Part shown: positions 1-61,710 of the stretch, piece by piece
Layout of the letters: every line of letters starts with the position of its first letter
Position numbering within the stretch: position 1 is the stretch's first letter
NCBI GenBank assembly: GCA_965218435.1
Contig: CBDCKW010000009.1
Coordinates: 1,152,001-1,216,000 of the forward strand
DNA length: 64,000 nucleotides
Reading direction: 5' to 3'
DNA from: Truepera sp.
GTDB taxonomy: Bacteria > Deinococcota > Deinococci > Deinococcales > Trueperaceae
Notes under the pieces: model-generated
The model's database searches: none
Seen by the model: only the letters and a program-made list of their open reading frames with translations
Told to the model about the DNA's origin: nothing
Made by a program: the position numbers and the translations under genes

Positions 1-96
1 GCGCCCCGTGACCTCGAGATCGAGGTGCGGCAGCTCCGTCAAGAGGCGCTCAAGGTCCTCTCGAGCGTTTCCAGAACCATCGAACAACTGCCGTGA
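1..96 (+). CDS. 3' end of an upstream gene (partial)
   Basis: Frame 1 open from window start (APRDLEIEVRQLRQEALKV...EQLP) to TGA at 94-96, just before the next ATG. Confidence 0.5.
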   Translation, partial: APRDLEIEVRQLRQEALKVLSSVSRTIEQLP

Positions 97-109
97 CCCC
101 GGCTACCTT

Positions 110-1024
110 ATGAGTCGCCGCGCGACGCTGATCCATAACGCCCACGCCGCCGGTCGGTTGCGGCTTTCGACCGGGCGCATTCTCGAGCTGCTCGGTGAGG
201 CCGGGTACGACGCCGAGCATGTACCGACTGAAAACGAAGACGACCTCGCCGCCGCCCTCAAAGACCCTGGTGACCTCGTGGTCGCAGCTGGCGGCGACGG
301 AACGATCCGCGGCGTGGCGCTGGCGCTGGCTGCGACAGGCTCGAGCGTTCCCTTGGCGCTCGCGCCCTTAGGAACGGCCAACAACATCGCCCGTACGCTC
401 GGGCTGACCGACAAAACCGAAACCTTGCTGCGGGGTCTTGCCAACCCCCAACCACGCCCTTTTGACCTCGGCCTGATCCGCGCCCCGTGGGGTGAGGTGC
501 GCTTTCTCGAGGCGTTCGGCGTCGGGCTCTTCGCTGCAGGGCTCAAGCAGTACAGTCCGGACGAAAGAAAAAGCCTCGTGCGGATGGCGCAAGCGGCGCT
601 CGAGACGTTGACGCACTACGAAGCCGGCGAATGGGAATGTGAACTCGACGGCCGCGACCTCTCCGGGCGCTACCTGATGCTCGAGGTGATGAACACGCAG
701 GCGATGGGGTTACGCCTGCGCCTCGCGCCGCACGCAGACCCGAGTGACGGTCTGTTTGACGTGGTGCGCGTGAAGGAGGACGATACCGTAGGGTTCGGCG
801 CGTACTTGACCAAACTCGCAGAGGGCGACCTGGAAACATTACCTAACGTCGAGATTAACCGGGGTAAACGGCTTAAGCTGCGTTGGAACGGCCTACCGCT
901 GCATTTTGACGAAGAGGTGCGCGGCGACGACCCGGCGCGTGAACCCGGCGGCGACATTGAGCTGACCATGCAGGCCGGCGCGCTGACCTTATGGCTTCCC
1001 AGCTCACCTGACGCAGTCTTTTAA
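110..1024 (+). CDS. Diacylglycerol/lipid kinase family protein (DAGK/YegS-like)
   Basis: AAGGDGT and PLGTANNIAR motifs; ATG at 110 preferred over the ORF-track start. Confidence 0.9.
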   Translation: MSRRATLIHNAHAAGRLRLSTGRILELLGEAGYDAEHVPTENEDDLAAALKDPGDLVVAAGGDGTIRGVALALAATGSSVPLALAPLGTANNIARTLGLTDKTETLLRGLANPQPRPFDLGLIRAPWGEVRFLEAFGVGLFAAGLKQYSPDERKSLVRMAQAALETLTHYEAGEWECELDGRDLSGRYLMLEVMNTQAMGLRLRLAPHADPSDGLFDVVRVKEDDTVGFGAYLTKLAEGDLETLPNVEINRGKRLKLRWNGLPLHFDEEVRGDDPAREPGGDIELTMQAGALTLWLPSSPDAVF

Positions 1025-1207
1025 CCGTATACTGCGTGTTGCTGAGGTTGCTACTTTCGGCACCTCAAGTATCGCCGTAAATCCGGAGAACTGCACAACA
1101 CCCCGTTCTTTGTGCCCTGAGAGCGTCCCCAACCAGATGACAAACCCGGACAAAAATTCAGACAAAAACACCAGACAAAAATCCTGGCCAAAGCCAGCTG
1201 GAAAACG

Positions 1208-1909
1208 ATGAAAATTGACCTGCATCTCCATACTGAAGCTTCGTTCGACTGCGTCGTGCCGCTGCCCGAGCTGTTAGACCGGCTGGTGGTGCGGGGCGTT
1301 GACGTTCAAGCGGTCACCGACCATAACGAAATCTGGGGCGCACAAAAGCTCCAGGCGCTGGCTGACGCGCGGCGCAAAACGCACCCAGGTACGCCGCAAA
1401 TTATCGTCGGCGAAGAGGTCAGTACCCGCGAAGGCGAGATTATCGGACTGTTTTTGACCGAGCAAATTCCCCGTGACCTGAGCCCGGAGGAGACAGTCGC
1501 GCAGATTCGGGCGCAGGGTGGGTTGGTCTTGCTGCCGCACGGTTTCGACCCGCTCAAAAAGAAACGTCTTAAACCTGAAGCGTTGGCGCGGATTGCCGAG
1601 GACGTAGACCTCGTTGAAGCGTTTAACGCGCGTATCTCGAGGCCCAAATGGAACCACGCCGGGGCAGCGTGGGCCGACGCTCGTGGGCTTCCCAAAAGTG
1701 CCGGGTCGGACGCGCACACGCTCGCCGACGTCGGCGACGCCTGGGTTACCACGCCTGTGCAGGATGTCAGCACGCCGGAGGGTTTGTTGGCCGCACTTCG
1801 CGCGGGTGAGGTGTCCGGCAACTGGACGCATCCGCTCTTGGCGTTTGCTTACAAGGTGTGGGATTCGGGGTTTGCGATCACGCGGCGCTACGTTGCAGGT
1901 AGGCGTTAG
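1208..1909 (+). CDS. PHP-domain metal-dependent phosphoesterase
   Basis: DLHLHT, AVTDHN, GEEV and GSDAH motifs. Confidence 0.9.
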   Translation: MKIDLHLHTEASFDCVVPLPELLDRLVVRGVDVQAVTDHNEIWGAQKLQALADARRKTHPGTPQIIVGEEVSTREGEIIGLFLTEQIPRDLSPEETVAQIRAQGGLVLLPHGFDPLKKKRLKPEALARIAEDVDLVEAFNARISRPKWNHAGAAWADARGLPKSAGSDAHTLADVGDAWVTTPVQDVSTPEGLLAALRAGEVSGNWTHPLLAFAYKVWDSGFAITRRYVAGRR

Positions 1910-1986
1910 GCGGCTTGGGCCAACTCATGCTCAGTAACGGTAATCTAATGACTGCCCGTTCACTCGCTACGGGCTAGGCTCAGGGT

Positions 1987-2544
1987 ATGGATCACGCAGA
2001 CGCGTTGTCGCTTATCGCGCCAGGTCTTTCAGTAGGCGTTGGTGAAGGTCAAATTTGGGCCGACCTCGGGGCCGGAAGCGGCGTTTTTGCCCGTGCGCTC
2101 AGCGAACTGCTGGGGCCGACGGGGGTTGTGATCGCCGTTGACCGGGATGCGCGGGTGCTGCAAAGGATTTGTGTACCGCGACCTGATTTGTCACGACGTG
2201 TGGGCGGCGAGATACGCCGCTACCACGCAGACTTTAGGGGAGCGCTCGAGCTTCCCCCGCTAGACGGCTTGCTGCTCGCCAACTCGCTCCATTTTGTCGC
2301 TCGGCAAGAGGCGGTGCTCCGCCAACTTATGAGTTATTTGCGCCCTCAGGGGCGGATGCTGCTCGTCGAATACGACGAACAAAGAGCGTCACCGTGGAAC
2401 CCGTATCCGGTCCCGCCGGGGCGTTTCAAAAAGCTCGCGGCGGCGGTGGGGTTGCAAGGTGTAAAAGAACTAAGGCGTCGCCCTTCACAGTTCGGTAACC
2501 GAGAGCTCTATACGGCAGTCGCGTTTAATAATATAGCTAGCTGA
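1987..2544 (+). CDS. Class I SAM-dependent methyltransferase
   Basis: WADLGAGSG motif I, ANSLHF; leaderless TAGGCT -10 upstream. Confidence 0.85.
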   Translation: MDHADALSLIAPGLSVGVGEGQIWADLGAGSGVFARALSELLGPTGVVIAVDRDARVLQRICVPRPDLSRRVGGEIRRYHADFRGALELPPLDGLLLANSLHFVARQEAVLRQLMSYLRPQGRMLLVEYDEQRASPWNPYPVPPGRFKKLAAAVGLQGVKELRRRPSQFGNRELYTAVAFNNIAS

Positions 2545-2771
2545 CCCGAAGATTGGCCTTTATAGAAGAGCTTGCTACAGTTGTTACGAGACGGTCATTA
2601 CAAAAAGTGCGTGCTGAGCGGCAAAGCTTAAACGGAGCGCGTTGCTCCGCAGCTTGTACTTGCCGAGCAGTTCCGAACGCCGTGAGAACGCCTATACGCC
2701 AAATGTGCTTACGTTATCCGAGTTACCGAATAAAAGTTCTATCCGAGCTCTCTTAGTGCGGTTGGACCCGG

Positions 2772-3353
2772 TTACGACTGCGCAGGTGTGTCTGCGGCAA
2801 CGAGCCGGAGAGCACTGAAGACTTCGGCGACGATTTCGGTAAGCTCTCGCTCGCTGCCTCCCTCGAGCCAACGCGTTAAGGAGACACTAAAGACGGTAAC
2901 CGCAATCTGGGCGGCGAGCGTCGAGGTCAACTCGTCGACGCCGCGATTCAGGAACCCTAGTCTGATCGCTTCCGACAGCACGGACAGCTTCCGCAGCTCG
3001 CGCTCGCGCAGGCCCTCGTCCGACTGAATGATGGCGTCGCGTGTCCGAAGGTACTCGAGCTGGCCCTCGAACCTGGTCGCCGCGACGGTCTCGAGTCCTT
3101 CTAAAATCACCTTCATCGGGCCGTGCGAAGCCGGGGCGTCGGCCATGAGCCTCGCGACCAGCGCGGGCAGTTCCTCCTCGACCGCAAAGAGCACCTCGCG
3201 CTTGTCCGCGAAGTGACGAAAGAACGTGCGGGTCGTCAGCCCGGCCCTAGCGGTGATCTCGGGAACCGTCGTCTCGGCAAAACCCTGCTCGAGGAACAGC
3301 TCGAGGGCGGCGCGTTCCAACCGCTTGCGTGCACCCGACTGCCACCGACCCAT
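2772..3353 (-). CDS. TetR/AcrR family transcriptional regulator
   Basis: N-terminal HTH (ALELFLEQGFAETTVPEITARAGLTTRTFFRHF). Confidence 0.95.
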   Translation of the reverse strand: MGRWQSGARKRLERAALELFLEQGFAETTVPEITARAGLTTRTFFRHFADKREVLFAVEEELPALVARLMADAPASHGPMKVILEGLETVAATRFEGQLEYLRTRDAIIQSDEGLRERELRKLSVLSEAIRLGFLNRGVDELTSTLAAQIAVTVFSVSLTRWLEGGSERELTEIVAEVFSALRLVAADTPAQS

Positions 3354-3368
3354 AACCGACTATACAAA

Positions 3369-3420
3369 ATGACATCGCGTGTCATCGTTATGCTATAGTG
3401 ATGTCATCACGTGTCATCAC
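3369..3420. promoter_or_regulatory. Tandem palindromic operators in the divergent TetR/SDR promoter
   Basis: ATGACAtcgcgTGTCAT (3369-3385) and ATGTCAtcacgTGTCAT (3401-3417). Confidence 0.75.
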
Positions 3421-3588
3421 TTTGACAACGCGGTAAAAGGGTCTAGCAGGACTGCAACATAAAATCGGATTGGAGTTTGACATTCTGTTGGAATAAACCT
3501 TAACGCAAATTTCATTAGCAGTCGGCGTGAGCTGTACTGCTGCAGAACGGAATCCTCGCAGATGAGGCGGAAAAGAGGGAATAAGCTT

Positions 3589-4503
3589 ATGAGAATTTTA
3601 GTTATCGGAGCTTCGGGCTTCGTCGGTAGGCATCTTGCTCAGGGGCTGTTGGCTGAAGGCTACGCCGTCCGCTGTCTGGCACGGAAGCCGGAGAAGATAA
3701 AAGATTTGGCGGCCATAGGCTATGAGATTGTCCAAGGCGACATTCTGGACGCCGAGTCTATGAAGCGTGCATTGGATTCTGTTCAGGCCGTTTATATCTC
3801 CGTCCACACCCTTTCACCTCAGCCTTCCAGTACGGTAGGTCAAGGCTTTATGGACATCGAGCTGCAGGGCTTGCAGAACATCGTGGCGGCGTGTAAGGCG
3901 AATGGTGTAAGCCGTTTGATCTACCTGACCTCCCTCGGCAACACGCCAGGCGCGCGCAGTGAATGGGGACGTGAACGCTGGCAAGCAGAACAGTTCTTGC
4001 TTGGGAGCGGCCTCGAGGTCACCGTGATCCAGCCCGGTCAGATCGTGGGTGTGGGCGGAAACGGCTTCAATATGATGGTGAACCAAGCGAAAAGGTCGCC
4101 TACCTTGATGATCGGTAGTGGAAAGCAAAAGTCGCGCAATATTGCCGTCAACGATCTGGTCTACTATCTTATCGGCGTCTTGAGCGATTCACGGACTTAC
4201 GGCCAAGCTTACGAAGTGGGCGGGGATGACGTTCTAACGAGCGACCAGATGGTTGACGTTACGGCAGAGGTTCTCGGTCACCATCATCCCGTCAAAATAC
4301 ACGTTCCGCGAACCCTTTTAGGCGTGTTCGCGCCGGTTATCGAGCGGGTAAGTAAACTCCCAAAAGGTGCTATTAAGGGCCTGGTGGACGGCATGGCGGA
4401 CGATCTCGTGGGTGATCCCACGCCCATCCGCAAACTTTTACCGAGGCCGCCGCTGTCTTACCGTCAGGCCGTGGAACAGGCGTTAACAGCGGAGAAGTCG
4501 TAA
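3589..4503 (+). CDS. Atypical SDR / NAD(P)H-binding (NmrA-like) protein
   Basis: GASGFVG Rossmann motif; ATG at 3589. Confidence 0.85.
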   Translation: MRILVIGASGFVGRHLAQGLLAEGYAVRCLARKPEKIKDLAAIGYEIVQGDILDAESMKRALDSVQAVYISVHTLSPQPSSTVGQGFMDIELQGLQNIVAACKANGVSRLIYLTSLGNTPGARSEWGRERWQAEQFLLGSGLEVTVIQPGQIVGVGGNGFNMMVNQAKRSPTLMIGSGKQKSRNIAVNDLVYYLIGVLSDSRTYGQAYEVGGDDVLTSDQMVDVTAEVLGHHHPVKIHVPRTLLGVFAPVIERVSKLPKGAIKGLVDGMADDLVGDPTPIRKLLPRPPLSYRQAVEQALTAEKS

Positions 4504-4639
4504 GACGTGTTCTCGTCGTTGGCGCAACCGGGTTTACCGGCGCTACCGCTGGTTTTTAAGAGAACGGTTTCGTACCGGGGAAGCCACCGAATGGGCTACG
4601 CCTAGCGCAGCCGGCAGCTCCAAGAAAGGATAACTCCAA

Positions 4640-5734
4640 ATGCCGACGAATACGGCGGCGTGGTTAGGGACAAAGCAGGCTAAGCTCGAGGTCAGGCCCG
4701 CGCCCTACACGCCTCCACGCGAGAACGAGATTGTCGTCAAAAACCACGCCGTCGCGATCAATCCTATTGATTGGCTCATTCCCGTTCTGGGCAATATCGC
4801 TTTTACCTGGATTAAATATCCTTTTGTCCTCGGTTGCGACCTTGCCGGCGAGGTTGTCGAGGTCGGTGGCGCGGTCACGCGGTTTAGCGTAGGCGACCGG
4901 GTTCTCGCTCACGCTGTAGGAACAGACAAGGACCGCAACACATCGGCGGAGGGGGCCTTCCAGAACTATACCGTCGTCTTAGAGCGGTTGGCCGCACCTA
5001 TCCCTGACACCCTGCCGTACGAAAACGCCGCTGTTCTCCCCCTCGCTTTATCTACCGCCGCGTGTGGCCTGTTTCAGAAAGATCAGCTGGCGCTTGACTA
5101 TCCGTCTTTGACCCCGAAACCTACGGGGAAGACGCTGCTCGTCTGGGGCGGCTCGACGAGCGTCGGCAGCAACGCTATCCAACTCGCCGTCGCCGCCGGC
5201 TACGAGGTCATCACCACGGCGTCAGCTAAAAACTTCGACTACGTTCGCAAGCTGGGTGCAAGCCAGGTCTTTGACTATCACAGCAAGACCGTTGTCAAAG
5301 ACGTTATCGCGGCCTTCAAAGGCAAAACGAGCGCCGGGGCACTCGCTATCGGAACCGGGTCAACCGAGCCTTGTGTGGACATCGCCTCCGCCTGTAACGG
5401 TCACAAGTTCGTCTCCACAGCCAGCCAATCCGTCTCTTTTGAAAATGGCGTGACCCTTCCGCTGCTGCTCCGGTCTTTATCGTCAAGTTTAGCGTTGCAG
5501 GTGAAAACTCGGTCGCGGCGCGTCCGCACGAAGTCTATCTTCGGCTCTACCTTAAAGGACAACGAGGTCAGCAGAGTCATCTATAAAGACTTCCTGCCCC
5601 AGGCTCTCGCAGCTGGCCAATATATCGCCGCCCCGGAGCCTTACGTCGTCGGCAAGGGTCTGGGGTCCATCCAAGCTGGGTTTGACGTTCAAAGGCAGGG
5701 TGTCTCGGCTAAGAAGGTGGTCGTTTCCCTCTAA
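4640..5734 (+). CDS. Medium-chain dehydrogenase/reductase (zinc-free enoyl-reductase-like)
   Basis: AINPIDW, GCDLAG, WGGSTSVG; RBS AAGGA. Confidence 0.9.
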   Translation: MPTNTAAWLGTKQAKLEVRPAPYTPPRENEIVVKNHAVAINPIDWLIPVLGNIAFTWIKYPFVLGCDLAGEVVEVGGAVTRFSVGDRVLAHAVGTDKDRNTSAEGAFQNYTVVLERLAAPIPDTLPYENAAVLPLALSTAACGLFQKDQLALDYPSLTPKPTGKTLLVWGGSTSVGSNAIQLAVAAGYEVITTASAKNFDYVRKLGASQVFDYHSKTVVKDVIAAFKGKTSAGALAIGTGSTEPCVDIASACNGHKFVSTASQSVSFENGVTLPLLLRSLSSSLALQVKTRSRRVRTKSIFGSTLKDNEVSRVIYKDFLPQALAAGQYIAAPEPYVVGKGLGSIQAGFDVQRQGVSAKKVVVSL

Positions 5735-5976
5735 ATTATCTTGGGTCGCGGCTGACCTAGAATAAACACGGTACGGAGGGGTGATTCGCGTCCCGGCGGA
5801 AGCCGCCTTAAAAACCCTTATCGGTCTGTCCACTTGCTCCGCCTGTGAGGTCTTACGCGCGATAGGTGAGTAGGCTTAACCTCGGTTTATACCTACTTAT
5901 CCCTACCTACTACTGTGACTTCTTCTAAATAGCCCTCTGCCAACACTGTTAGCTAAGTTTAGAATACCGTCAAAAT

Positions 5977-7653
5977 CTAAGCGTTTTTAACCGTGCGCCG
6001 CGCCCGAACCGCCGCCGCCGAATAGGTCAGTCGTTCTTGTACAAAGGTCTTGAGCAGTGAGGTCGTCGTCACGTCCTTAAAGAAGTGCTCGCGGAAGGCT
6101 CCGCGCCCCAAAAAGCCCGTATCGCGCCCTAACAGGCCGAGCCGGAGTTTGCGTTTGGGCAGGTAGGTTTTACCGTCCAACACGTCTCTAAATGCTTGGG
6201 GAAGCCACTCGAGCCTCCTAAGCTGCGCCTGAATCTCAGCAACCGCTCGGTCTACCGCCGCCTCGTCTTGCAGGTCAAGGGTTTCTAAACGCGCGTCTAC
6301 GGCGTCGGCGACCTCCCGAAACTCGGCGAAGCCGCCCCCGACGAGCCGTAAGTCTTGGGTTCCCGCGTAATAGCTGCGGCGGTCTGTGGCGAGCGCCCGG
6401 ACGCTGCTCAGTTTGACGAATTCGGTATACGCGCCCAACAGCCACACCACGCTGTAGACCGTCCAGAGTTTGGGGTTGATAAACGACCGATACGAATTAG
6501 CGACTAAGCGGTCGTTTGCTCGGATAAAGGCCAAGGTGGTGGTCTCGAGCGGCCTAAAACGCGCGGCGCTGTAATCCCCGTCGTGTTTAGCTTCTAACAG
6601 CAGATCAGCCAACACCGATACGCTCGTTAAAGACGTGTAAAGTCCTTTGGAATAGAGCGGGTCAACGAACCCGGCAGCGTGCCCCAGAAGCGCAAAGCGG
6701 TCGCCGACGACGCGTTTGGAACTGTACTGGATACGTCCGGTACGCGTCCACGGGCGCACGGCTTTACCTCCGGCCAGGTGCCGCTCGATGCTTGGAAACC
6801 GCTTGATAAAGGTCCGAAACTCGTCTTCCGGGCTCTCATCTGACGCTGGGTAAAGGCGCGGGTCGAGCAGCAGCCCGACGCTGCAGAGAGGATTGGTCGC
6901 CTTAGCGTGGTTGTTAAAGGGGATGACCCAGAGCCAACCGCCCGCAAAGATGTGATGGAGCGTACCTTCGGAGGCGCGGAAGGGAAGACGGCTCCGGTTT
7001 TGTGACGACGTGCTGTGATAGTCGGGAACCCCGACCATATGGGTAAAGAGCGCCCTCGAGTGTGTCTGCAGCTCAAAATCTCTCAGCTCGAAAGCGTCGG
7101 CTAAGAGTGACTTAAACCCACCTGCGTCTACCACGTAATCAGCCGTAAAAGTCCCAGTGTCGGTTTTTAAGGTGACGGTTTCAGCGGTGACCTCGAGCGC
7201 CTTGACCGGCGTGTTTTGCAAGACCGTCGCGCCGTAACGCACTGCCACCGTGGTTAAAAACGCGTCTACATCTTGCCGGTAGAGGTGTAGTTCGTGGCCA
7301 TGAGGTGCTTTAGGGATGACCGCTTGCAGTACCTGCGTGGGGTCTTGCTCCGCTCCGGCGGTGTGGTGCAGGTACGAAAAGTGCCGTTTGACGCCGTGCG
7401 AGCTGCCGATTAAAGGCAGGTAGTTTTCCGAGCTGAAATACGCAAGTTCAGGCACACCGTAAAGGTCAGCGAGTGCGCGCATCGTCTCGCTGGTTTCTAA
7501 AATCATCGATTCGCCGATGCTGAACTTCGGATGCGTTTTGGCCTCGAGCACCACCACACGTTGCCCGTGTTTGGCGAGAATCGCCGCGAGCGACGAGCCC
7601 GCAATCCCCGAGCCGATAATAGCGACGTCAAAGTGGTTCATAGGTGGGTTCAC
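5977..7653 (-). CDS. FAD-dependent halogenase, PrnC-like
   Basis: GSGIAG FAD motif, GVKRHF with Lys, LYRQDVDA, EGTLHHIFAGGWLWVIPFNNH (WxWxIP), GFVDPLYSKG. Confidence 0.85.
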   Translation of the reverse strand: MNPPMNHFDVAIIGSGIAGSSLAAILAKHGQRVVVLEAKTHPKFSIGESMILETSETMRALADLYGVPELAYFSSENYLPLIGSSHGVKRHFSYLHHTAGAEQDPTQVLQAVIPKAPHGHELHLYRQDVDAFLTTVAVRYGATVLQNTPVKALEVTAETVTLKTDTGTFTADYVVDAGGFKSLLADAFELRDFELQTHSRALFTHMVGVPDYHSTSSQNRSRLPFRASEGTLHHIFAGGWLWVIPFNNHAKATNPLCSVGLLLDPRLYPASDESPEDEFRTFIKRFPSIERHLAGGKAVRPWTRTGRIQYSSKRVVGDRFALLGHAAGFVDPLYSKGLYTSLTSVSVLADLLLEAKHDGDYSAARFRPLETTTLAFIRANDRLVANSYRSFINPKLWTVYSVVWLLGAYTEFVKLSSVRALATDRRSYYAGTQDLRLVGGGFAEFREVADAVDARLETLDLQDEAAVDRAVAEIQAQLRRLEWLPQAFRDVLDGKTYLPKRKLRLGLLGRDTGFLGRGAFREHFFKDVTTTSLLKTFVQERLTYSAAAVRARRTVKNA

Positions 7654-7842
7654 AGGCGCGTGCTCACCCCCCCAGCTTATACCCTTAATGCCTGCAAGCT
7701 GAGTTCTGAAATCAGGAGAAAGAAGTCAGAATACAGAATTTAGAAGGTGCTGCCTCGGTAAAGTCTGTGTTGTCCTTCAGTCAAGATGACGGCAAAAGTA
7801 GAGGGCAACAGAACTCGGCCAAGACCGACTTTAAGACGACCT

Positions 7843-8864: not shown

Positions 8865-9172
8865 CTCCTTCTCTATAGTAAAAGCTCTGTAGCAAAAACC
8901 TCGTGGTAACTCCTCTGCGTATCAGCCTTAATCTAAACCGTCTTTTTTACGGCGTAAGTCGTGGTTGAGACAGATGCTTGCAAGAGCCTCGAGCAACGCA
9001 ATCCAACTTCGTCCCAAAACTGAACCAGGGCCTACGGTCTGTGGCCGTCAACCGACCTCAAAATAAACTTGGTTCAGCTAAAGACCAGCTCGTGTCCGGT
9101 GGGGTACACGAAAAGAAACCAAGCGCCCGACATGCCAGCTACACAAAGCGTCAAGTCAATAAGGAGTCAGCC

Positions 9173-10861: not shown

Positions 10862-10881
10862 ACGCGTCCTAAACTTATTTG

Positions 10882-10905
10882 GGGGCCAACGTTTAAGTTG
10901 GCCCC
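10882..10905 (+). terminator. Stem-loop, probable terminator
   Basis: GGGGCCAAC...GTTGGCCCC about 20 nt after the stop codon. Confidence 0.65.
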
Positions 10906-12044: not shown

Positions 12045-12056
12045 GTTGGGAAGGTT

Positions 12057-12137
12057 TAGGTTCTAAACAGCACATCTTCACGCCGAAAACTGCGTAACGC
12101 AAACCAGAGCAGCAGCGCCGCGAGTAAGAGGCTCGAG
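12057..12137 (-). repeat. Orphan copy of the last 81 bp of the ABC permease gene (direct repeat of 12969-13049)
   Basis: 77/81 identical; all 4 mismatches synonymous; identity ends at CTCGAG. Confidence 0.95.
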
Positions 12138-12152
12138 CCCGTTGTGCTGGCG

Positions 12153-12644
12153 TTAAGCTCGAGTGGTCGCTCGTCGTTCCGGCTTGGGTGCTGCTTCGGG
12201 TGCTGCAAAACTAACTCTCAGCTCAGTACCTAAAACCTCCGCAACGCGGTTTAAGGTCTTAACCGAATGGCCCCAATAAAACGGATTGGTCAGCCTGCTT
12301 ACGACCGAACGAGAGGTGCCCAACCGCTTGGCAAGTTCGCTCGGTTTGACGCCGAGTTGCTCGAGTTCTGCTGCCAGCGTAAGTGAAACCGGGTTGAGTG
12401 GCGCAGGTTCGACGTAAACGACCATACTGCCCGCTTCATAGTTAGACAGGTCAATGTCCACGTCGTCTAGCGGAGCTGGTGGCGTTTCGTTACGTTCGGC
12501 GTAGCTGTGCAGCTCGAGCGCAAGTTGTTCAGCCATCAAGCGCCCTAGTTCAGCGCGGTTATTTGCAGTTGCCAGCGTTGCAAATTGAACCGCGCTAGCT
12601 GCTAGGTTAAGCCTAGCGGGTTCGATGACGAAGGGATATTTCAT
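12153..12644 (-). CDS. hicB: HicB-like antitoxin with C-terminal XRE HTH
   Basis: MKYPFVIE start, ETPPAP, C-terminal HTH (SELAKRLGTSRSVVSRL); follows hicA. Confidence 0.75.
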   Translation of the reverse strand: MKYPFVIEPARLNLAASAVQFATLATANNRAELGRLMAEQLALELHSYAERNETPPAPLDDVDIDLSNYEAGSMVVYVEPAPLNPVSLTLAAELEQLGVKPSELAKRLGTSRSVVSRLTNPFYWGHSVKTLNRVAEVLGTELRVSFAAPEAAPKPERRATTRA

Positions 12645-12675: not shown

Positions 12676-12867
12676 TTATTTAAGGCCAGCTTCTTTGAGA
12701 ATCTTGTTTAGCGTCCCTTTAGGTACCTCATCTGAAAGCTTGCCTGCAATGGGGATGGGGCGTCTTGCCCCCGGCCTGGTGTACTGCCGATGACTCCCCG
12801 TCTGCCGAGTCTGTGCCCAACCGCTCGCCTCGAGCAGCTGCAGCTTGATAAGGTCTTTTACCTTCAT
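12676..12867 (-). CDS. hicA: HicA family toxin (mRNA interferase)
   Basis: MKVKDLIK...GW...TGSHRQY...EVPKGTLNKILKEAGL, typical HicA with GSH motif. Confidence 0.9.
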   Translation of the reverse strand: MKVKDLIKLQLLEASGWAQTRQTGSHRQYTRPGARRPIPIAGKLSDEVPKGTLNKILKEAGLK

Positions 12868-12893
12868 AGCGCATGGTAACAACGATACCACAT

Positions 12894-12967: not shown

Positions 12968-14191
12968 CTAGGTTCTAAATAGCACATCTTCACGCCTAAA
13001 ACTCCGTAAGGCAAACCAGAGCAGCAGCGCCGCGAGTAAGAGGCTCGAGGCCCACGCCCACACTGCCAACTGCGGGTCGAAAGCTCCCTTTACGGTGTCG
13101 TTCATTAAGAGGAGTGTGCCGAACGCGGGAAGCGCGTAGACGACCGGACTCGAGCCGAAAAAGTCTGAAAACTGCAAACTCACGACCGGCAACACCAACA
13201 CAAGCGCGAGCGGTGCGACGTAGCTCTGCGCTTCTTTGAAAGAGCGGGCGAAAAGCGTGATGGCGATGAGCAGCGCCGCGACGAGCGCCGCTAACAGCAG
13301 GGCGCTCACCAGCAGGGCGAAAAGTTCACTCGGACGAACCCGCAACGTGCCGCCGAGACCTTGGGCGATGCCCCCCGCACTGCCACTTAACCGCCCCCCA
13401 AATGTGGCGCTTAAGAGCCATCCGCTTCCTAAGAACCCGACCAGCGCTACCGACGCCGCGCTCAGGCCGAACAGCAGGGTTGCTAGAAACTTCCCGACGA
13501 CGACTTCCGAGCGCCGCACCGGAGCTACAAGGAGCGCCTCAAGCGTGCCACGTTCTTTTTCCCCGGCTGTCGCGTCAATGGCCACCATCTGCCCGCCGGT
13601 CAGCGTCCAGATCATTACGAAAAAGGGAATTAACCAGCCGAGTGAGCCGCTCGCACGCTCCGCCGGGGTGCTTGCGTCGCGGGTCTCGAGCCGAATCGGA
13701 GTAAGGACTTCGGGAACCAATCCGGCCCGCTCAATCCGCTGCCGTACCAGCGACTTCTGAAAGGTTTCAACCGCTCCGGTGAGCTTTTCGTTCAAGAGTT
13801 CGTCGCGTAAGCCGCCGCTTTTACGGTAAAGCACGAGCGGCGCGGTGCCCTCGCGCAGGTTTACGGCAAAACCTTGCGGTACCCTAAAGGCACCTTTGAC
13901 CTCTTCTGTGCGCACGGCCGCTTCAGCGTCCTTGACAGAAATCAGCTCAATGTTTTTACGTTTTAAGGTCTGGACAAACGCTGGCGGCAAGCGTTCCAAC
14001 CCTTCAGCCCCGACCGTCGTACTCTGCAGCGCCTCGCGGCCGAACAGCCCGCCGAGGAGCAGCGGCAAACCGAGCATCACGAGCGGCAACACCACGAGTG
14101 GAATCAGCAAGTTGGCGAGCACGGCGCGGTGGTCTCTTAGGGTCGCTAAAACTTCGCGGTGCGCGACGGCCCAGACGAGTCCGGGCCTCAC
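12968..14191 (-). CDS. ABC-2 type permease (NatB-like)
   Basis: AIDATAGEKERGTLEALL, ARSFKEAQSY, multiple TM helices. Confidence 0.9.
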   Translation of the reverse strand: MRPGLVWAVAHREVLATLRDHRAVLANLLIPLVVLPLVMLGLPLLLGGLFGREALQSTTVGAEGLERLPPAFVQTLKRKNIELISVKDAEAAVRTEEVKGAFRVPQGFAVNLREGTAPLVLYRKSGGLRDELLNEKLTGAVETFQKSLVRQRIERAGLVPEVLTPIRLETRDASTPAERASGSLGWLIPFFVMIWTLTGGQMVAIDATAGEKERGTLEALLVAPVRRSEVVVGKFLATLLFGLSAASVALVGFLGSGWLLSATFGGRLSGSAGGIAQGLGGTLRVRPSELFALLVSALLLAALVAALLIAITLFARSFKEAQSYVAPLALVLVLPVVSLQFSDFFGSSPVVYALPAFGTLLLMNDTVKGAFDPQLAVWAWASSLLLAALLLWFALRSFRREDVLFRT

Positions 14192-23086: not shown

Positions 23087-23087
23087 A

Positions 23088-30133: not shown

Positions 30134-30409
30134 ATGCCTGAAAACAAACTAACGATCTATAACCGGCTTTCCGTTTTACGGGCCGAACGCGGGCTGTCGC
30201 GGCAAGAGCTGGCGGACGCGGTGGGGGTGAATTATCAAACTATCGGTTACTTGGAGCGCGGCGACTACAACCCGAGTTTAGAGTTGGCTTTCAAACTGAG
30301 CGACTACTTCAGCTTGCCTATCGAGGTTATCTTTTCAACGAAGCCCCTCAAACCCTTGAGCGAAGCTCTGTATGAACTTCAAAATCACAGAGAGGAAAAA
30401 GTTGCATGA
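30134..30409 (+). CDS. XRE-family HTH transcriptional regulator
   Basis: LRAERGLSRQELADAVGVNYQTIGYLERGDYNPSLELAF. Confidence 0.95.
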   Translation: MPENKLTIYNRLSVLRAERGLSRQELADAVGVNYQTIGYLERGDYNPSLELAFKLSDYFSLPIEVIFSTKPLKPLSEALYELQNHREEKVA

Positions 30410-30495
30410 AAAAGCTTGGGTTTTTTGCTGGCACACTCGAGCCCAACCCACCTACCGAAGAAACCTCTTTTCGTACCTCGAGCGGAGCGCACTGA
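30406..30495 (+). pseudogene. 29-codon in-frame deletion remnant of a third membrane-protein paralog
   Basis: MKKLGFFAGT-LEPNPPTEETSFRTSSGAH*; ATGA and TGATG coupling at its ends; LEPN matches the WLEPN/WLEPD tails of the two neighbours. Confidence 0.75.
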
Positions 30496-30962
30496 TGCGC
30501 AAACCTCTAAGGAGGAGCGTTCGGCGGCTCTTAAGCGTCCTTGCGTTCGCGGCGCTGCTCCTCACCTTTTTTGCGGGCGCACTAGGCAGGGAGTTCGCCT
30601 GGTTAGCCCTTCTGCCGCCCATTCCTCTTATTTTTGTCATCATATGGCTGGATAGAGCGACGGCGAATATAGCGACCAAAAAAGTGAGTAAGCTCGATGA
30701 GCGGCAGAGACGTGTACATGACCAAGCCCACCGCTTGACGTACTGGGTTCTCTACCTTTATGCGTTCCTCGTGTTCTCTGTTTACACTTTTGACTTTGGC
30801 GACCTCAATATCCCTATAGCTTACGGGGTAGGGGAAACGACCTTCATCTTCAAACTACTCAGCATGAACATATATTTGTTCATTGTCTTGCCAACTCTGT
30901 TCGTGGCGTGGCTCGAGCCTAACCTTGTGCAAGAAGATAACTTCGCTAAGGAGACTGCATGA
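30495..30962 (+). CDS. Membrane protein with DERQ motif (DUF2178-like)
   Basis: About 4 TM helices, KLDERQ, AWLEPN; start at TGATG overlap. Confidence 0.75.
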   Translation: MRKPLRRSVRRLLSVLAFAALLLTFFAGALGREFAWLALLPPIPLIFVIIWLDRATANIATKKVSKLDERQRRVHDQAHRLTYWVLYLYAFLVFSVYTFDFGDLNIPIAYGVGETTFIFKLLSMNIYLFIVLPTLFVAWLEPNLVQEDNFAKETA

Positions 30963-31465
30963 AACGCCGTATAGTCTTATATCAGAGTAGCCGCCGCTTA
31001 CTCGTAATTGGCTTCATAAGCACTTTTGTAGCGAGTTTGATGCTGAGACTCTTAGCCGATAATCTTGACCAATTAGCTTTAGGTCTTCAAGTTTTGGGAG
31101 TATTCTTTGCTGCTGGTTTACTCAGATGGGGAAAGCCTCAAATCAAAAGCAAATTTATGGATGAGCGCCAGCGCGATATTCGTAACCGCTCGTACTTTAG
31201 GACTTACTTACTGCTCTCGGTTATATCCGTCAGTATTCCCATTGTCATGACTTTGCTGTTTGTCGTTGCTGAGCAGACTACAAGGGCGCTGATCGTTACG
31301 CTCCTCACCTCCTTACAGCGACCTGTGGATTTTGTAACGGTGTTTAGTTCGTTAGCACTTTTTGTGGTTTTTCTTCCTTGGGCAATGCTGGCGTGGCTCG
31401 AGCCCGACCCACCGCGAGACGAATCCGTTACTCTCAAGTCTGACTCGCGCATAACGAACTCTTAA
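30959..31465 (+). CDS. Membrane protein with DERQ motif, paralog of the previous gene
   Basis: About 4 TM helices, MDERQ, AWLEPD. Confidence 0.75.
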   Translation: MKRRIVLYQSSRRLLVIGFISTFVASLMLRLLADNLDQLALGLQVLGVFFAAGLLRWGKPQIKSKFMDERQRDIRNRSYFRTYLLLSVISVSIPIVMTLLFVVAEQTTRALIVTLLTSLQRPVDFVTVFSSLALFVVFLPWAMLAWLEPDPPRDESVTLKSDSRITNS

Positions 31466-53811: not shown

Positions 53812-54711
53812 TAGAGGATATTTGAGAATCATCTAGTCCTCCACGACTTGCCGTTTGTGGCAGCTAAACGTCTGGTGATGAGGTCACAGCTCGCTAGGTA
53901 GATGAAGGATTTGCTTGAGGAGGTGCGACTACTTTGCTGAAGAAGTAACGATAGACCTTTACGTTCTGGAACCTTTGCCCTTGTCACCAGCAAGTGACGT
54001 TTCCTGCCGTTGACACTTTTAGCGCCGTCATAGCCGTTGTTATGTAAGCTGCCTGCTTTGACCGATTGACTGTCGGCACACCTAGAACGGGCAAAGCCCA
54101 GCGACCCTAGGGAGTGCCTCCGTGCACCTAGAGCTTGTTATGAACCTTGAAGGTTCATTTGAGCTGTTCGGTTAACGCTTAGAAAATCCGTCCTGCTCCA
54201 GCTTTTTGTACTTTCGACGGTATTTTTTTCAGTGTGCTCGGAGCTTAAACGCAGGCCCGAGTCCGAGGTACCGAAACAGCCAAACAATCTACCTGCTGTG
54301 TAGGACGCGCACTCAGCCATTACAATCGTCTTAGAGTTCATAACACGCTCTAGTGGGCCTAGTTTTCCCCGTACTTGGTTCTTGGTTGCGTCCCAGCTTC
54401 TTTCTGAGTTTGCGCCAATGCCCGTCGTCCCGCCACCTGGCAAAGTGATAGTAGACCGTTTGCCAAGGCGGAAAATCTCCTGGTAAGTCACGCCAGGTGC
54501 AGCCGTTTTTCAACAGGTAGCGCAACGCGTTGAGCAGCAAGCGTAGTTGATGGTCCAAAGGTCGTCCCCGCTCTTTTGGGGGCGTCAAGCTCATTAGCTA
54601 AGGCTCCAGAACTGCCCACTCTTCACCTTTTAAGTCTGTTGTATACTGCTTTCGTTTAACCATCAACCCCTGTCTAAACACAGGTGGGGGTTATTTCTCA
54701 AACACCCTCTA
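53812..54711 (-). mobile_element. Decayed IS5-family insertion sequence
   Basis: 17-bp TIRs TAGAGGATATTTGAGAA / TTCTCAAACACCCTCTA (2 mismatches); transposase pieces YTTDL..W, GCTWRDLPGDFPPWQTVYYHF, FIYLAS..ITRRLA, with stop and deletions. Confidence 0.9.
54129..54352. mobile_element. MITE-like element nested inside the IS5
   Basis: TIRs TAGAGCTTGTTATGAAC / GTTCATAACACGCTCTA (1 mismatch), CTAG at both ends, about 224 bp, no transposase. Confidence 0.8.
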
Positions 54712-54927
54712 GATATAAACCAGTACCGACCCGTGGCGATTGGTGTAGACGATATGCGCGGTGGTTCGAGCAGTATACTTAATGCTGAGTACACAAGCTA
54801 CGCTGTAATTATATTCGGTGCATCTTGTAAAATCGGCACAAACTACAGGCAGCACGGCGAGTAAAAAATTTACGTTCGTATAAAATTACGATTTGATTGT
54901 CGTTTGACCGTGTTGTAACTGCGCTGC

Positions 54928-55052
54928 TTGCTTTACGATGACGCTTTACGCTAGACTTTCTCTTGTGAAAAGCACCCTAGCTTCGCCCTTTAGCCGTTAG
55001 CGCAGAGTTTCTGCGCGACCTTTGACGCTGCCCTTTGGGGCGGTGTTTTTTT
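54928..55052 (+). promoter_or_regulatory. pheST promoter, leaderless uORF and intrinsic terminator (candidate attenuator)
   Basis: TTGCTT-N18-TAGACT; GTG uORF 54965-55000; GC-rich hairpin plus T-run at 55024-55052. Confidence 0.55.
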
Positions 55053-55088
55053 GTGGGTTTTAGGGGCTACGAATCAGGAGCTATATAA

Positions 55089-58491
<3,403 letters not shown>

Positions 58492-59315: not shown

Positions 59316-59478
59316 CTTTTGATGCTCGAGCCGAGCCGGAATCCCAACCGGCGCAAATTCGTTACAAGCAAACCTAAAGGTGTCTCTGTTCTGCAGCTAA
59401 TAGTTCTGCACGTGTTCGTGTGGCTGCGGCTAAGCATGAACAGTTCCTTGACCTAGTTCTTCAATACGGGAGATTTTT

Positions 59479-61296
59479 ATGTGTGGCATTGTGGGTTATG
59501 TGGGACACCGCCAAGCGGCGGAGGTAATTTTAGACGGGCTTAAAAGGCTCGAGTACCGCGGCTACGACTCCGCCGGGGTCGTCATTTCCGGTGACGACGA
59601 CGCACTCCGCGTCACTAAAAGGGCGGGCAAACTCAAAGTTTTAGCGGACGCGCTCCAAACCGAACCCCTTGACGGCACGCTCGGTCTCGGGCACACGCGC
59701 TGGGCGACGCACGGCAAACCCAACGACGTCAACGCGCACCCGCACCTCTCAGAAGACGGCAAGCTGGCCGTGATTCACAACGGCATCATCGAAAACTACC
59801 TGCCGCTCAAGTCACGGCTGCAAAAAGAAGGGCACGTCTTCGCTTCTGAAACGGACACTGAAGTCATCGTGCATCTGATCGAAGCGCACTATCAGGGTGA
59901 TTTGGTCGCTGCTGTGAGAAACGCGCTCTGCGAAGTGACCGGCGCGTACGCGCTCGTTGTCTCGCATAAAGACCACGATCTAATCGTCGCCGCCCGCGCC
60001 ACGAGTCCGATGGTTTTGGGCCTGGGTAACGGTGAAAACTTCGTCGCTAGCGACGTGCCCGCGCTGCTCCCGTACACCCGCGAGGTGATATTTCTGCACG
60101 ACGGTGATATGGCGCTCTTAACCCAAGACGGGATTACGATTACCGATTTCGGCGGTAACGTGTTAGAGCGCAGCGCCACCACAATTGACTGGGACGCCGA
60201 AGCTGCTGAAAAAGCCGGATTCGAGCACTATATGCTTAAAGAAATCTACGAGCAGCCGCGCGTGTTGCAGCACACGCTTGGGGGGCGCTTTGCCAGCAGC
60301 GGAACCGATGTCCAGTTAGGGCTGACCCTCGAGCCCAGCGAGATCGACCGGGTGGTCATTACTGCCTGCGGCACGGCGTACTACTCGGGGATGGTCGGTG
60401 AATACCTGATTGAAAAACTCGCCCGTATCCCGGTAGATGTCGAGATTGCCAGCGAGTTTCGTTACCGTGAACCCGTGTTAGACTCCCGCACGCTCTGCGT
60501 GGTGGTGTCGCAATCGGGTGAGACGATTGATACGCTCGAGGCCCTCCGCGAAGCCAAACTCCAGGGGGCGAAAACGCTTGCGATTCTTAACTCAAAGGGC
60601 TCATCCATCAGCCGTGAAGTCGATGATACGCTCTATATCCACGCAGGCCCCGAAATCGGCGTCGCCAGCACGAAAGCCTACACCGCGATGGTTACCGCCT
60701 TTGAACTGTTAGCCATCTTTTTGGGCCGCGCCAAAGGGACGCTCAGCGGCGAACGCGCCGCCGAAATGATCCGCGCCTTGCGCCAGCTGCCGGGTTTGCT
60801 CGAAGAGACGCTACAAACGCGCGACGAAATCGCCCGAATTGCCGAAACCTATAAAGACAAACGCGATTACCTCTTTCTGGGGCGTGGCGCGAACTATCCG
60901 ACGGCGCTCGAGGGTGCCCTCAAACTCAAAGAAATCTCGTACATCCACGCCGAAGCCTACGCCACCGGCGAGATGAAGCACGGGCCGATTGCGCTCATAG
61001 ACGCCGACCTGCCGGTCGTCGCGGTTGCTACGGCGTCGGCGCTGTACGACAAGACGATTTCAAATTTGCAAGAGGTCAGAGCCAGGGACGGTATCGTCAT
61101 TGCGCTTGCCAGCCAGGGAGACGAACGCATCGCCGCGCACGCCGACGCTGTGCTGTATGTACCGGAGACGCTCGAGCTCCTTTCACCCATCGTCAACGTG
61201 GTGGCGCTGCAACTGTTAGCGTATGAAACAGCAGTACGGCTCGGGCGCGATGTAGACCAGCCGCGCAATTTGGCGAAGAGTGTCACGGTCGAGTAG
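59479..61296 (+). CDS. glmS: Glutamine--fructose-6-phosphate aminotransferase
   Basis: MCGIVG, EYRGYDSAG, HTRWATHG, SQSGET, PRNLAKSVTVE. Confidence 0.99.
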   Translation: MCGIVGYVGHRQAAEVILDGLKRLEYRGYDSAGVVISGDDDALRVTKRAGKLKVLADALQTEPLDGTLGLGHTRWATHGKPNDVNAHPHLSEDGKLAVIHNGIIENYLPLKSRLQKEGHVFASETDTEVIVHLIEAHYQGDLVAAVRNALCEVTGAYALVVSHKDHDLIVAARATSPMVLGLGNGENFVASDVPALLPYTREVIFLHDGDMALLTQDGITITDFGGNVLERSATTIDWDAEAAEKAGFEHYMLKEIYEQPRVLQHTLGGRFASSGTDVQLGLTLEPSEIDRVVITACGTAYYSGMVGEYLIEKLARIPVDVEIASEFRYREPVLDSRTLCVVVSQSGETIDTLEALREAKLQGAKTLAILNSKGSSISREVDDTLYIHAGPEIGVASTKAYTAMVTAFELLAIFLGRAKGTLSGERAAEMIRALRQLPGLLEETLQTRDEIARIAETYKDKRDYLFLGRGANYPTALEGALKLKEISYIHAEAYATGEMKHGPIALIDADLPVVAVATASALYDKTISNLQEVRARDGIVIALASQGDERIAAHADAVLYVPETLELLSPIVNVVALQLLAYETAVRLGRDVDQPRNLAKSVTVE

Positions 61297-61341
61297 CGGC
61301 GCAGTGGTCTAACTTTTGTCGAATTTTTGTTGCTGACCGAG

Positions 61342-61710
61342 GCTCGAGAGAGCGGCGCGAACATCAAACGGGCGCGGTCTCGGTGAGTAGATACGGCGGC
61401 GCAAGTTTTAGCCGCTCGGCACGACGACCACCGCCCGCTGCCGCATCACCTGTCAGACAAGCACGTCACGCACTACGACGGCTTTACCGACCTCTGGCGC
61501 AGGGCGCTCTGGACGGCTGTGAAGGCTGAGATGTACGGCGGCACGACAAAGGGCTGGGTGCTCATTCAAGAGATGATCGAGCGCGTGCAGGAGGCGAAAG
61601 TCGCGGGTTACAAGAAGCCGTCAGCGTGGGCGTGGAGCAAGGTTAAAGAGGAGATGGCGGCGCTGCGGCGGGATTATGGGAGTGGTGCGGCGGGGGCGCT
61701 CGAGGCTTAG
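61342..61710 (+). pseudogene. C-terminal fragment of an unknown gene with internal stop
   Basis: Coding-like frame ...RSR*VDTAAQVLAA...LWRRALW...KKPSAWAWSK...LEA*, no start; CTCGAG at both ends. Confidence 0.5.

Follow-up and report, generated by a model that had tools for sequence, protein, structure and literature searches.

CTCGAG as a highly iterated palindrome in a genome of the Trueperaceae, with a candidate orphan adenine methyltransferase

We report that the hexamer CTCGAG is the commonest hexamer in the genome of a member of the Trueperaceae (phylum Deinococcota), where it is held in excess at the level of the DNA rather than through proteins or codons. The analysis centres on a 64,000-bp stretch of the chromosome, hereafter the window (C9:1152001-1216000, C9 being one of the nine contigs of the 4,805,864-bp assembly G000), and extends to the whole genome and to related genomes. 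Our reading, to which we give a probability of roughly 60%, is that CTCGAG, preferably in the form G-CTCGAG-C, is a genuine highly iterated palindrome (HIP), that it is the target of an orphan N6-methyladenine (m6A) methyltransferase, and that its marks serve a process with a periodic need for them, while it is no general guide of rearrangement.

Highly iterated palindromes have been a puzzle of cyanobacterial genomes for about thirty years and their function is debated, with repair, chromosome structure and DNA uptake among the proposals. The known members are HIP1 (GCGATCGC) and the alternate HIPs GGCGCC, GCsGC and rCCGGy of cyanobacteria (PMC4390886, PMC5861425). Elhai 2015 gives their range of abundance as 500-2,500 per Mb (PMC4390886), and Xu, Lawrence and Durand 2018 describe a periodic large-scale distribution of HIP1 over 10-90 kb (PMC5861425). 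A second instance, with another word and in another phylum, shows the phenomenon to be a general one.

Results

Abundance in the window and in the genome

CTCGAG occurs 144 times in the window, against 21.95 +/- 4.61 occurrences in 100 dinucleotide-preserving shuffles, the richest of which held 36, so that 0 of 100 reached the observed count. The first site lies at position 13 and the last at 61699-61704, with 26 in the first 10 kb. Sorted by reading frame, 89 read CTC-GAG, 9 read nCT-CGA-G and 26 read nnC-TCG-AG, the remaining 20 lying outside the listed open reading frames (ORFs). A first-pass annotation of the window had tallied by eye about 140 sites, about 26 of them in the first 10 kb, where about 20 were expected in all, and had seen them in every frame and in intergenic DNA; the exact counts agree closely.

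13..61704, no strand: dispersed CTCGAG sites, 144, of which 41 are GCTCGAGC (site list, shuffles and frame count)

The genes of the window are ordinary chromosomal housekeeping genes (ruvA, eutBC, pheST, glmS, truB, prs). The best matches of its PheS protein are metagenome-assembled genomes labelled Trueperaceae (91%, 76% and so on), followed by Deinococcales, Deinococcus and Thermaceae (56-60%), and the genome is that of a Trueperaceae member.

Across the genome CTCGAG reaches 9,883 copies (2.06 per kb, 2,056 per Mb, or about one per 470 bp), with observed/expected ratios (O/E) of 6.74, 6.1 and 5.22 at Markov orders 0, 1 and 2. At the maximal Markov order the ratio is just 1.24, which is what enriched flanking 5-mers would lead one to expect. 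None of the other 6-bp palindromes in this genome exceeds an O/E of 1.13 at order 2. The octamer GCTCGAGC is likewise the commonest of its length, with 2,508 copies, and the base on the 5'-side of the site is G in 51% of cases. Since this preference is alike in intergenic DNA (50% of sites) and in the three reading frames (44-53%), it is a property of the DNA.

Independence of protein composition and codon usage

The gene set consisted of 3,713 ORFs of at least 100 aa, covering 76% of the genome and called with a crude codon-score method. When synonymous codons were shuffled within genes (20 times), the sites numbered 1,896 ± 28, 75 ± 6 and 249 ± 15 in frames 0, 1 and 2; the genome holds 6,043, 525 and 1,304, that is 3.2, 7 and 5.2 times as many, and CTCGAG is the top hexamer over the synonymous-shuffle expectation (3.62x). 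The first-pass annotation had named hexamer counts with Markov and codon-pair control as a check of its proposal; the excess persists against the Markov models and, in all frames, against the codon shuffles.

The choice of codons follows the motif in each frame. Among 11,271 Leu-Glu pairs, 6,043 (54%) are written CTC-GAG, where codon usage predicts 1,812 (16%). Leucine is encoded by CTC in 70% of cases before GAG, against 35-46% before the other G-initial codons sampled (GCG 25%, GAA 11%), and glutamate by GAG in 95% of cases after CTC, against 36-59% after most other NNC codons; after TTC the figure is 87%, TTCGAA itself being an avoided word. In the remaining frames, serine in the context C-NNN-AG is TCG in 70% of cases and in 10-25% elsewhere, and arginine in the context CT-NNN-G is written with the otherwise rare CGA in 44% of cases, compared with 2-10% elsewhere. 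The DNA outside the called ORFs contains 2,026 sites where 298-357 are expected, and intergenic gaps of 30-150 nt contain 159 where about 20 are expected (about 8x). CTCGAG thus genuinely acts at the level of the DNA.

Two further observations concern the coding regions. TTTAGA, TTTTAG, TTTAGG and other words of the form NTA-GAN are 2.2-3.6x above the synonymous-shuffle expectation, with no repeat family as their source, and the commonest encoding of Leu-Glu other than the motif is TTA-GAR.

Conservation between genomes and comparison with HIP1

Alignment of 400 kb of G005, another member of the genus, to G000 gave 151 high-scoring segment pairs over 243.6 kb at 77% identity. Orthologous CTCGAG was conserved in 594 of 1,001 site observations (59%), and the density in G005 is also 2.1 per kb. 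The controls were conserved in 26.7% (all hexamers), 23.4% (hexamers 12-36 nt away), 27.8% (words of the same composition) and 14.3% (other palindromes) of cases, and CTCGAG ranks first among 1,019 hexamers. A single mismatch separates the orthologous state from CTCGAG in 6.2% of cases, whereas the figure for hexamers in general is 35.9%; non-motif states are mostly two or three changes off, for example TTAGAG or TTGGAG. It follows from the rarity of one-mismatch states that CTCGAG is all-or-none, with short-lived near-sites.

CTCGAG resembles HIP1 in being a GC-rich palindrome and the top k-mer of its genome (2,056 per Mb, inside the range given by Elhai, O/E 5.2-6.7, with GCTCGAGC the top octamer), in occurring in all frames and in non-coding DNA beyond what codon usage accounts for, and in being conserved between genomes above control words (59% against 23-28%). 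Further points of likeness are the palindromic G...C extension of the 6-bp core and the patchy occurrence across a phylum; a probable cognate orphan methylase would be another. It differs in the word itself, in the phylum and in the modification, which is likely m6A rather than 5-methylcytosine (m5C) or N4-methylcytosine (m4C). The central proposal of the first-pass annotation, a HIP1-like motif in this lineage, is therefore upheld: the top hexamer survives codon control, is present in intergenic DNA, is conserved in position and carries the G...C flank. HIP1 proper (GCGATCGC, with its CGATCG core, of cyanobacteria) was rejected as the word concerned, the organism belonging to the Trueperaceae and CGATCG being avoided in G000 (just 326 sites, O/E 0.15-0.32).

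Spread across the Deinococcota

Sites were counted in 201 Deinococcota genomes, a survey in which genome sizes are rounded and related genomes are not independent. CTCGAG is hyper-abundant in many of them, and opposite regimes exist within the one phylum. Most Trueperaceae hold 1,300-2,560 sites per Mb. Genera g26, g37 and g38 reach 1,400-3,500 per Mb, single genomes 2,916 (G030) and 3,569 (G197), and family f5 reaches 5,163-5,915 per Mb (23,000-27,000 per genome) with just 6-15 copies of GAGCTC per 4.5-Mb genome. Genus g23, at about 800-1,000 per Mb, is level with its GAGCTC control. Genus g21, the largest in the sample (83 genomes) and, judging by that size, presumably Deinococcus, has about 10-300 per Mb (40 in a genome of 2.8 Mb, to take one case) and so avoids the word strongly, by 10-25-fold.

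A comparison of GCTCGAGC with the control CGAGCTCG across relatives is confounded by GAGCTC avoidance and by GC content, and 20-kb samples of 40 genomes were therefore used; several of these samples are short and that of G201 is an odd AT-rich stretch. In them the high-GC Trueperaceae lie at a codon-level baseline (O/E 1-2.9) and the moderate-GC lineages are truly enriched (O/E 3-16). Full-text searches of the literature, with subscription journals outside their scope and one of them swamped by cloning primers, returned no published CTCGAG hyper-abundance in Deinococcota.

The phylum offers a test bed for the phenomenon: it includes relatives that can be cultivated and are naturally transformable, active CTCGAG methylases without a partner nuclease are already published from it, and its sister lineages range from about 36-fold excess to 10-25-fold avoidance. 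There are practical consequences too: the word distorts codon usage and k-mer statistics and thereby affects binning, gene finding and the detection of horizontal transfer, and behaviour under XhoI digestion is a lineage marker.

A candidate orphan methyltransferase

The first-pass annotation had supposed that a methyltransferase, repair or uptake process maintains the motif. A candidate lies outside the window, at C9:3672240-3673934, and is designated B here. Its 564 aa carry the domains N6_Mtase (PF02384, E 9.4e-15), Eco57I (PF07669, E 6.7e-8) and M_Eco57I_C (PF22837, E 7.9e-17), as expected for a gamma-class N6-adenine methyltransferase of the Eco57I/TaqI-like kind. Of the methylase candidates searched for in the five other genus members, it alone is found in all five (61-76% identity). 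Candidates A, I and D occur in 0/5, 1/5 (weakly) and 1/5, and two cytosine-C5 methylases, M and N, are unmatched in G001-G005 save for one weak hit of N in G004 at 31% identity; these five were rejected as the motif enzyme on that ground. Candidates C, E, F and G were set aside for their type I or type ISP architecture, no genus-wide search being made for them. The strain-specific C5 methylases of G000 are encoded at C9:679783-680904 and C9:3898143-3899273.

B lies in a housekeeping neighbourhood, and the gene order around it, which is kept in G005 and G004, reads dnaG, Uma2, glycosyltransferase, B, two M50 peptidases, CCA enzyme and CorA. No nuclease gene adjoins B, but the Uma2-family gene two genes upstream belongs to a family described in Pfam as putative restriction endonucleases. 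Uma2-family genes are dispersed in this genome as 11 paralogues, the one near B lying at C9:3670465-3670923, and among 14 control genomes the family was matched in Synechococcus elongatus, Thermus thermophilus and Deinococcus radiodurans only. The profile of the XhoI nuclease family (PF04555) had no match in G000 or in any control genome, so that its silence in G000 carries no weight. We rejected the idea that CTCGAG is the target of an XhoI-type restriction-modification system, the site being 5-7x over-represented and no restriction-type nuclease adjoining B.

In the 201-genome survey full-length orthologues of B were found in 20 of 41 Trueperaceae and in 14 of 18 genomes of the hyper-enriched genus g26; at 50% identity or more they occur in 8 enriched Trueperaceae and in 14 of the 18 g26 genomes. 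The remaining four g26 genomes have an enzyme that is just distantly related (553-582 aa, 24% identity), combines Eco57I with TaqI_C and again lies in a housekeeping context, and G030 has a 447-aa enzyme with Eco57I and TaqI_C, so that at least three distant lineages of Eco57I-type orphan methylases (B and the two TaqI_C enzymes) are present in hyper-enriched genomes. No TaqI_C domain was found in the G000 genome. One protein from Meiothermus matches B with 53% identity over 94% of its length.

Active enzymes of the corresponding specificity are on record from the phylum. Blow 2016 (PMC4752239) lists Type II m6A enzymes that modify CTCGAG and have no cognate nuclease in Meiothermus ruber (M.Mru1279II, Mrub_2385; 99.5% of sites detected), M. 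chliarophilus (M.Mch9957IV, MeichDRAFT_0814; 94.1%) and Marinithermus hydrothermalis (M.Mhy14884I, Marky_0034; 94.6%, annotated as Eco57I family). In the text of that paper the stem 'overrepresent' does not occur, and CTCGAG is mentioned only for origin clusters in Nocardia. B is like these enzymes in phylum, in its predicted Type II m6A type, in the lack of a cognate nuclease and, for Marky_0034, in the Eco57I family, a likeness drawn from family annotation and not from direct alignment. In favour of the methylase link are a genus-conserved orphan candidate and the partnerless CTCGAG enzymes published from three Deinococcota; the CTCGAG specificity of B itself is something we infer. It is plausible that a conserved orphan methylase targets or maintains CTCGAG, with B the candidate.

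Distribution of sites and mobile DNA

The spacing of sites on contig C9 is near exponential (coefficient of variation 0.95), with 101 gaps above 2 kb where 119 are expected and 13 above 3 kb where 14 are expected. Pairs of sites at most 20 bp apart are depleted (172 against 349 expected). Counts per 10 kb, like the spacing close to Poisson, have a mean of 21.25, a variance of 23.1 and a range of 8-37, and their correlation with GC content is just 0.13. The densest 1-kb window holds nine sites, which is the Poisson prediction, so there is no origin-type cluster as in Nocardia. Contig C5 (685 kb) has a lower density, at 1.6 per kb.

The first-pass annotation had seen no site in an IS5 block or after 61704. 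The absence is real: site-free stretches run from 53148 to 55250 (2,102 bp) and from 61704 onwards (2,851 bp). No special meaning attaches to it, about 2.0 gaps of more than 2 kb being expected among 144 sites, so that both stretches are chance-sized. They contain the following features.

54138..54594, minus strand: IS4/IS5-family transposase remnant in a CTCGAG-free stretch (DUF4096 ORF 54331-54594, E 1.2e-22)
62854..63381, plus strand: IS200-type Y1 transposase (Y1_Tnp, E 4.3e-37)

The IS200-type element has a repeated 534-bp core (window 62802-63335, C9:1214802-1215335) with 0 sites. It is one of five multi-copy insertion sequence (IS) families that lack CTCGAG, with lengths of about 1,059 bp (8 listed copies), about 935 bp (7), about 1,133 bp (6 full copies), 534 bp (3) and about 2,433 bp (2); a single site is present in each of two more families, of about 900 bp and 1,269 bp. 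Counted over about 8.3 kb of unique sequence, the multi-copy IS families together have 2 sites against an expectation of about 17.6, and as a class they are really without the motif.

Other accessory DNA carries the word. A mobile island in G000 has 29 sites in 13.7 kb, and blocks of at least 3 kb in G005 that have no counterpart in G000 hold 1.77 sites per kb, against 2.18 in aligned DNA. Two small circular contigs, each assembled more than once around, lie above the chromosomal density of 2.1 per kb: C6 (unit 1-12981, 12,981 bp; integrase, primase, AAA_25 protein, MazF) with 5.2 sites per kb and C8 (unit about 1001-11471, about 10.5 kb; primase-helicase, DUF4238) with 3.2. Motif-free islands were rejected as markers of foreign DNA, long gaps not being in excess.

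Discussion

Proposed mechanism and the points that weigh against it

We propose that a force acting on double-stranded DNA keeps the exact hexamer at about one per 470 bp, in genes, intergenic DNA and accessory DNA alike. Candidate B would methylate the adenine of CTCGAG, with an activity like that of the published partnerless enzymes of Meiothermus and Marinithermus. The methylated sites would then be used by some process that depends on marks a few hundred bases apart, most probably the recognition of self or parental DNA while it is repaired, recombined or taken up in natural transformation. Selection or biased repair would preserve the exact sites and draw near-sites in.

Several observations weigh against this proposal. 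Words one mismatch from CTCGAG are barely depleted, with an O/E of 0.95 in a motif-masked order-2 Markov model (CTTGAG/CTCAAG 0.76, TTCGAG/CTCGAA 0.83, GTCGAG/CTCGAC 1.45); the signals from codons and from orthologues are far stronger. Two haplotypes of C5:175592-226735 are present in the assembly, the second being contig C2 at 99.4% identity, and 5 of 92 sites differ between them where 3.1 are expected; these are small numbers, but no short-term constraint is visible in them. On the present sequence data selection and biased repair cannot be told apart, and we know of no mutational route by which m6A creates sites. As regards B itself, its closest relatives in the PDB are weak (BseCI, E 0.004), and none among more than 4,900 relatives has a stated recognition site. 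Homologues of 42-48% identity occur in high-GC Trueperaceae with an O/E of just 1.4-2.3, and the B query found no orthologue in the enriched G174, g33, g37, g38 and family f5, where either non-orthologous methylases or none at all must be at work.

Neutral drive and self-recognition as alternatives

The sites might have no function at all. Neutral molecular drive, in which biased mismatch repair or gene conversion in a polyploid cell both creates and keeps them, is unlikely in our estimation, though it deserves to be weighed seriously. The all-or-none behaviour of the word (one-mismatch orthologous states at 6.2% against 35.9%) is what drive would produce, as is the position of most non-motif partners two or three changes away; the higher density on small circular replicons, which may be multi-copy, points the same way, and a repair model was put forward for HIP1 by Elhai. 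Drive sits less well with the depletion of close pairs, which hints at diminishing returns over a blind process, with the near-equal coding and non-coding density despite a different supply of near-sites, and with a genus-conserved methylase of the m6A type, not m5C.

The best-known precedent for such a bias is Dcm/Vsr very-short-patch repair, which raises CCWGG in Escherichia coli. CTCGAG would be comparable in that a methylase-linked bias shifts the frequency of a word genome-wide, in Dcm/Vsr via repair. It differs in that the Vsr endonuclease has 0 matches in this 100%-complete genome, the control search having matched in E. coli, Bacillus subtilis and Caulobacter; in that the C5 methylases are strain-specific and not genus-conserved; and in that the transition variants of the word are mildly low (0.76, 0.83). 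Vsr/Dcm-type repair was accordingly rejected as the cause.

A second alternative, for which the chances are likewise small but real, makes CTCGAG a watermark for DNA uptake or self-recognition, incoming DNA with methylated sites being preferentially taken up or recombined. The uniform density, never below 8 per 10 kb and near the core value in accessory blocks, would be in keeping with this, as would the enrichment of the small circular replicons (5.2 and 3.2 per kb against 2.1 for the chromosome) and the lack of the motif in multi-copy IS families, which need no uptake. HIP1, for which such a role is now put forward, offers a parallel, since it is reported to raise transformation in a way that depends on methylation (PMC13756078 and bioRxiv 10.1101/2024.09.10.611283). 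The same observations, on the other hand, would fit equally with fast biased repair, or with gene flow mostly among motif-bearing kin. The DNA uptake sequences of Neisseria and the Pasteurellaceae are 9-12 nt long, not palindromic, and have a known receptor. CTCGAG is like them in being short, genome-wide, even, present at about 1 per kb or denser, in and between genes, and shared by relatives; it is unlike them in being a shorter, 6-nt palindrome, and one known here from the genome sequence alone.

The widest form of this idea, that adenine-methylated CTCGAG is a phylum-wide 'self' watermark of the Deinococcota which filters the DNA that is taken up, recombined or kept, we regard as doubtful. 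If true, it would explain at once the core-density accessory DNA and satellite island, the super-enriched circular replicons, the lack in IS families and the opposite regime in g21, where avoidance would presumably come from CTCGAG-cutting systems. It would also be a second such system beside HIP1, of independent origin and within reach of experiment, with the orphan methylase as the point of entry.

CTCGAG at rearrangement junctions

The first-pass annotation had further claimed that CTCGAG marks rearrangement junctions and guides integrase-free gene gain and loss, through breaks or recombination at the motif, and had pointed to two places in the window. The first is the insertion of a hicAB toxin-antitoxin cassette, with these features.

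12057..12137, plus strand: left copy of an 81-bp direct repeat (duplicated ABC-2 permease 3' end), closing with CTCGAG 12132-12137; 77/81 identical to the right copy
12153..12644, minus strand: hicB-like helix-turn-helix (HTH) antitoxin gene (HTH_3), with CTCGAG at 12158, 12360 and 12513
12676..12891, minus strand: hicA toxin gene (HicA_toxin, E 4.8e-16), with CTCGAG at 12829
12969..13049, plus strand: right copy of the 81-bp repeat (true ABC-2 permease 3' end), closing with CTCGAG 13044-13049; 77/81 identity
12968-14191, minus strand: ABC-2 permease gene (ABC2_membrane)

The 81-bp repeat has just two copies in the genome, which lie around hicAB, and in both the homology stops exactly after the last base of CTCGAG, as had been claimed. 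The cassette carries four CTCGAG and is therefore not motif-poor foreign DNA; at the same spot G005 has a different insert of 1.9 kb. The layout is probably best read in the ordinary way, as a cassette flanked by a long target duplication. Nobusato et al. are said to have described, in 2000, such an 'insertion with long target duplication' for restriction-modification cassettes. The hicAB locus resembles these in being a small two-gene selfish cassette beside which the 3' end of a neighbouring gene is directly duplicated (81 bp here), and differs in its toxin-antitoxin cargo, the likeness being one of layout alone.

The second place, described as the fusion point of a collapsed gene at 30436, lies in an array of related genes.

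30436..30441, no strand: CTCGAG that forms the right border of a deletion, about 1.45 kb by alignment with G005
30372..31465, plus strand: tandem paralogous small membrane-protein genes of about 160 aa (repeat spacing 476 and 485; BLASTP E 1e-4, with ...AWLEP aligned)

Homology to G005 is lost at about 30376 and returns exactly with the C of CTCGAG 30436, G005 being about 1.45 kb longer there, after the HTH gene, so the position given in the first-pass annotation was accurate. The junction joins TTTTTTGCTGGCACA (…GCTGGCACA) directly to CTCGAG; the interior of one unit here runs on into the tail of a later unit, and any microhomology is at most 2 nt (CT). The tandem units start at CTCGAG 30436, 30912 and 31397, and G005 has four (L119 18104, 18625, 19101 and 19577). 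In this array, which lies 3' of an HTH_3 regulator, each protein ends in the conserved C-terminal tail AWLEP, whose Leu-Glu is encoded by CTCGAG. Since the site is inside a conserved coding repeat, recombination between paralogues explains the junction. The copy number of the AWLEP genes varies between genus members.

A third, anecdotal junction is formed by identical partial IS copies of 601 bp (C9:1256132-1256733 and 2702137-2702738), whose homology boundary falls exactly at CTCGAG.

Genus members share only 70-83% DNA identity, and the best metagenome relative of the permease is 81% identical as a protein; with no near-identical strains in the genus, the general claim was tested on intragenomic repeats and on the one pair of haplotypes. 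Of 361 ends of low-copy repeats genome-wide, 6 lie within 6 nt of a CTCGAG edge and 14 within 15 nt, where shifted controls give 9.6 ± 3.7 and 21.4 ± 4.4, the repeat ends being defined by BLAST and fuzzy by about 3 nt. An excess at the ends of high-copy repeats (28 against 15.8) arises because one family resembling miniature inverted-repeat transposable elements (MITEs) has CTCGAG in its inverted ends. Between the haplotypes C2 and C5, 0 of 12 indels touch CTCGAG (ten measuring 1-9 bp, a 109/10-bp replacement and an IS insertion of 1,406 bp). Small as these tests are, a rule of junctions at CTCGAG would have surfaced in them.

That the motif guides gene gain and loss is accordingly very unlikely, and this part of the first-pass annotation is not sustained. 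In its favour are the exact coincidences at hicAB (both copies), at 30436 and at the 601-bp repeats, and the HIP1-flanked deletion of 352 bp in Synechococcus (Gupta 1993, as cited in PMC13756078). With one site per 470 bp, however, chance contact within a few nucleotides has a frequency of about 1-2%, the cases were chosen post hoc, paralogue recombination suffices at 30436, and neither the repeat ends nor the haplotype indels favour the word. The best reading of both junctions in the window is coincidence, given how frequent the word is, or at most an occasional break at the site.

Codon usage and repeated elements as rejected sources of the sites

It is hardly credible that protein composition and codon usage produce the excess as a side effect, with Leu-Glu simply written CTC-GAG. 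This would account for the 61% of sites (6,043/9,883) that are in-frame CTC-GAG, for a mildly enriched Leu-Glu dipeptide (O/E 1.26) and for the high-GC relatives at a baseline O/E of about 2 with similar GAGCTC counts; it does not account for the excess in every frame over shuffles that preserve every protein and the codon usage of each gene, for the context-dependent rise of CGA, or for the short intergenic gaps with their unchanged preference for a flanking G, and a codon-pair artefact is ruled out on these grounds. Spread of the sites by copies of mobile or repeated elements has practically nothing left to recommend it beyond a MITE-like element of about 242 bp (5 copies) with CTCGAG in both terminal inverted repeats, and is ruled out by flanks that are not repetitive (the commonest 10-mer context accounts for 296/9,883 sites and positions beyond +/-1 are near background) and by the few sites in repeats, all repeated DNA holding 548 and the multi-copy IS families 0-1 each.

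Further palindromes and the MITE-like element

Several palindromes are near-absent from G000, with an O/E of 0.02-0.13: GGCGCC (52 copies), GGGCCC (49), TTTAAA (58), AGGCCT (93) and GGATCC (67). They are probable footprints of restriction-modification. The copies of the MITE-like element lie at C9:467671-467912, 1257805-1258046, 1403596-1403841 and 2623616-2623851 and at C7:9963-10204; their terminal inverted repeats (AACCTCGAGTGCTAG...) contain CTCGAG, and the element appears to be flanked by short target duplications.

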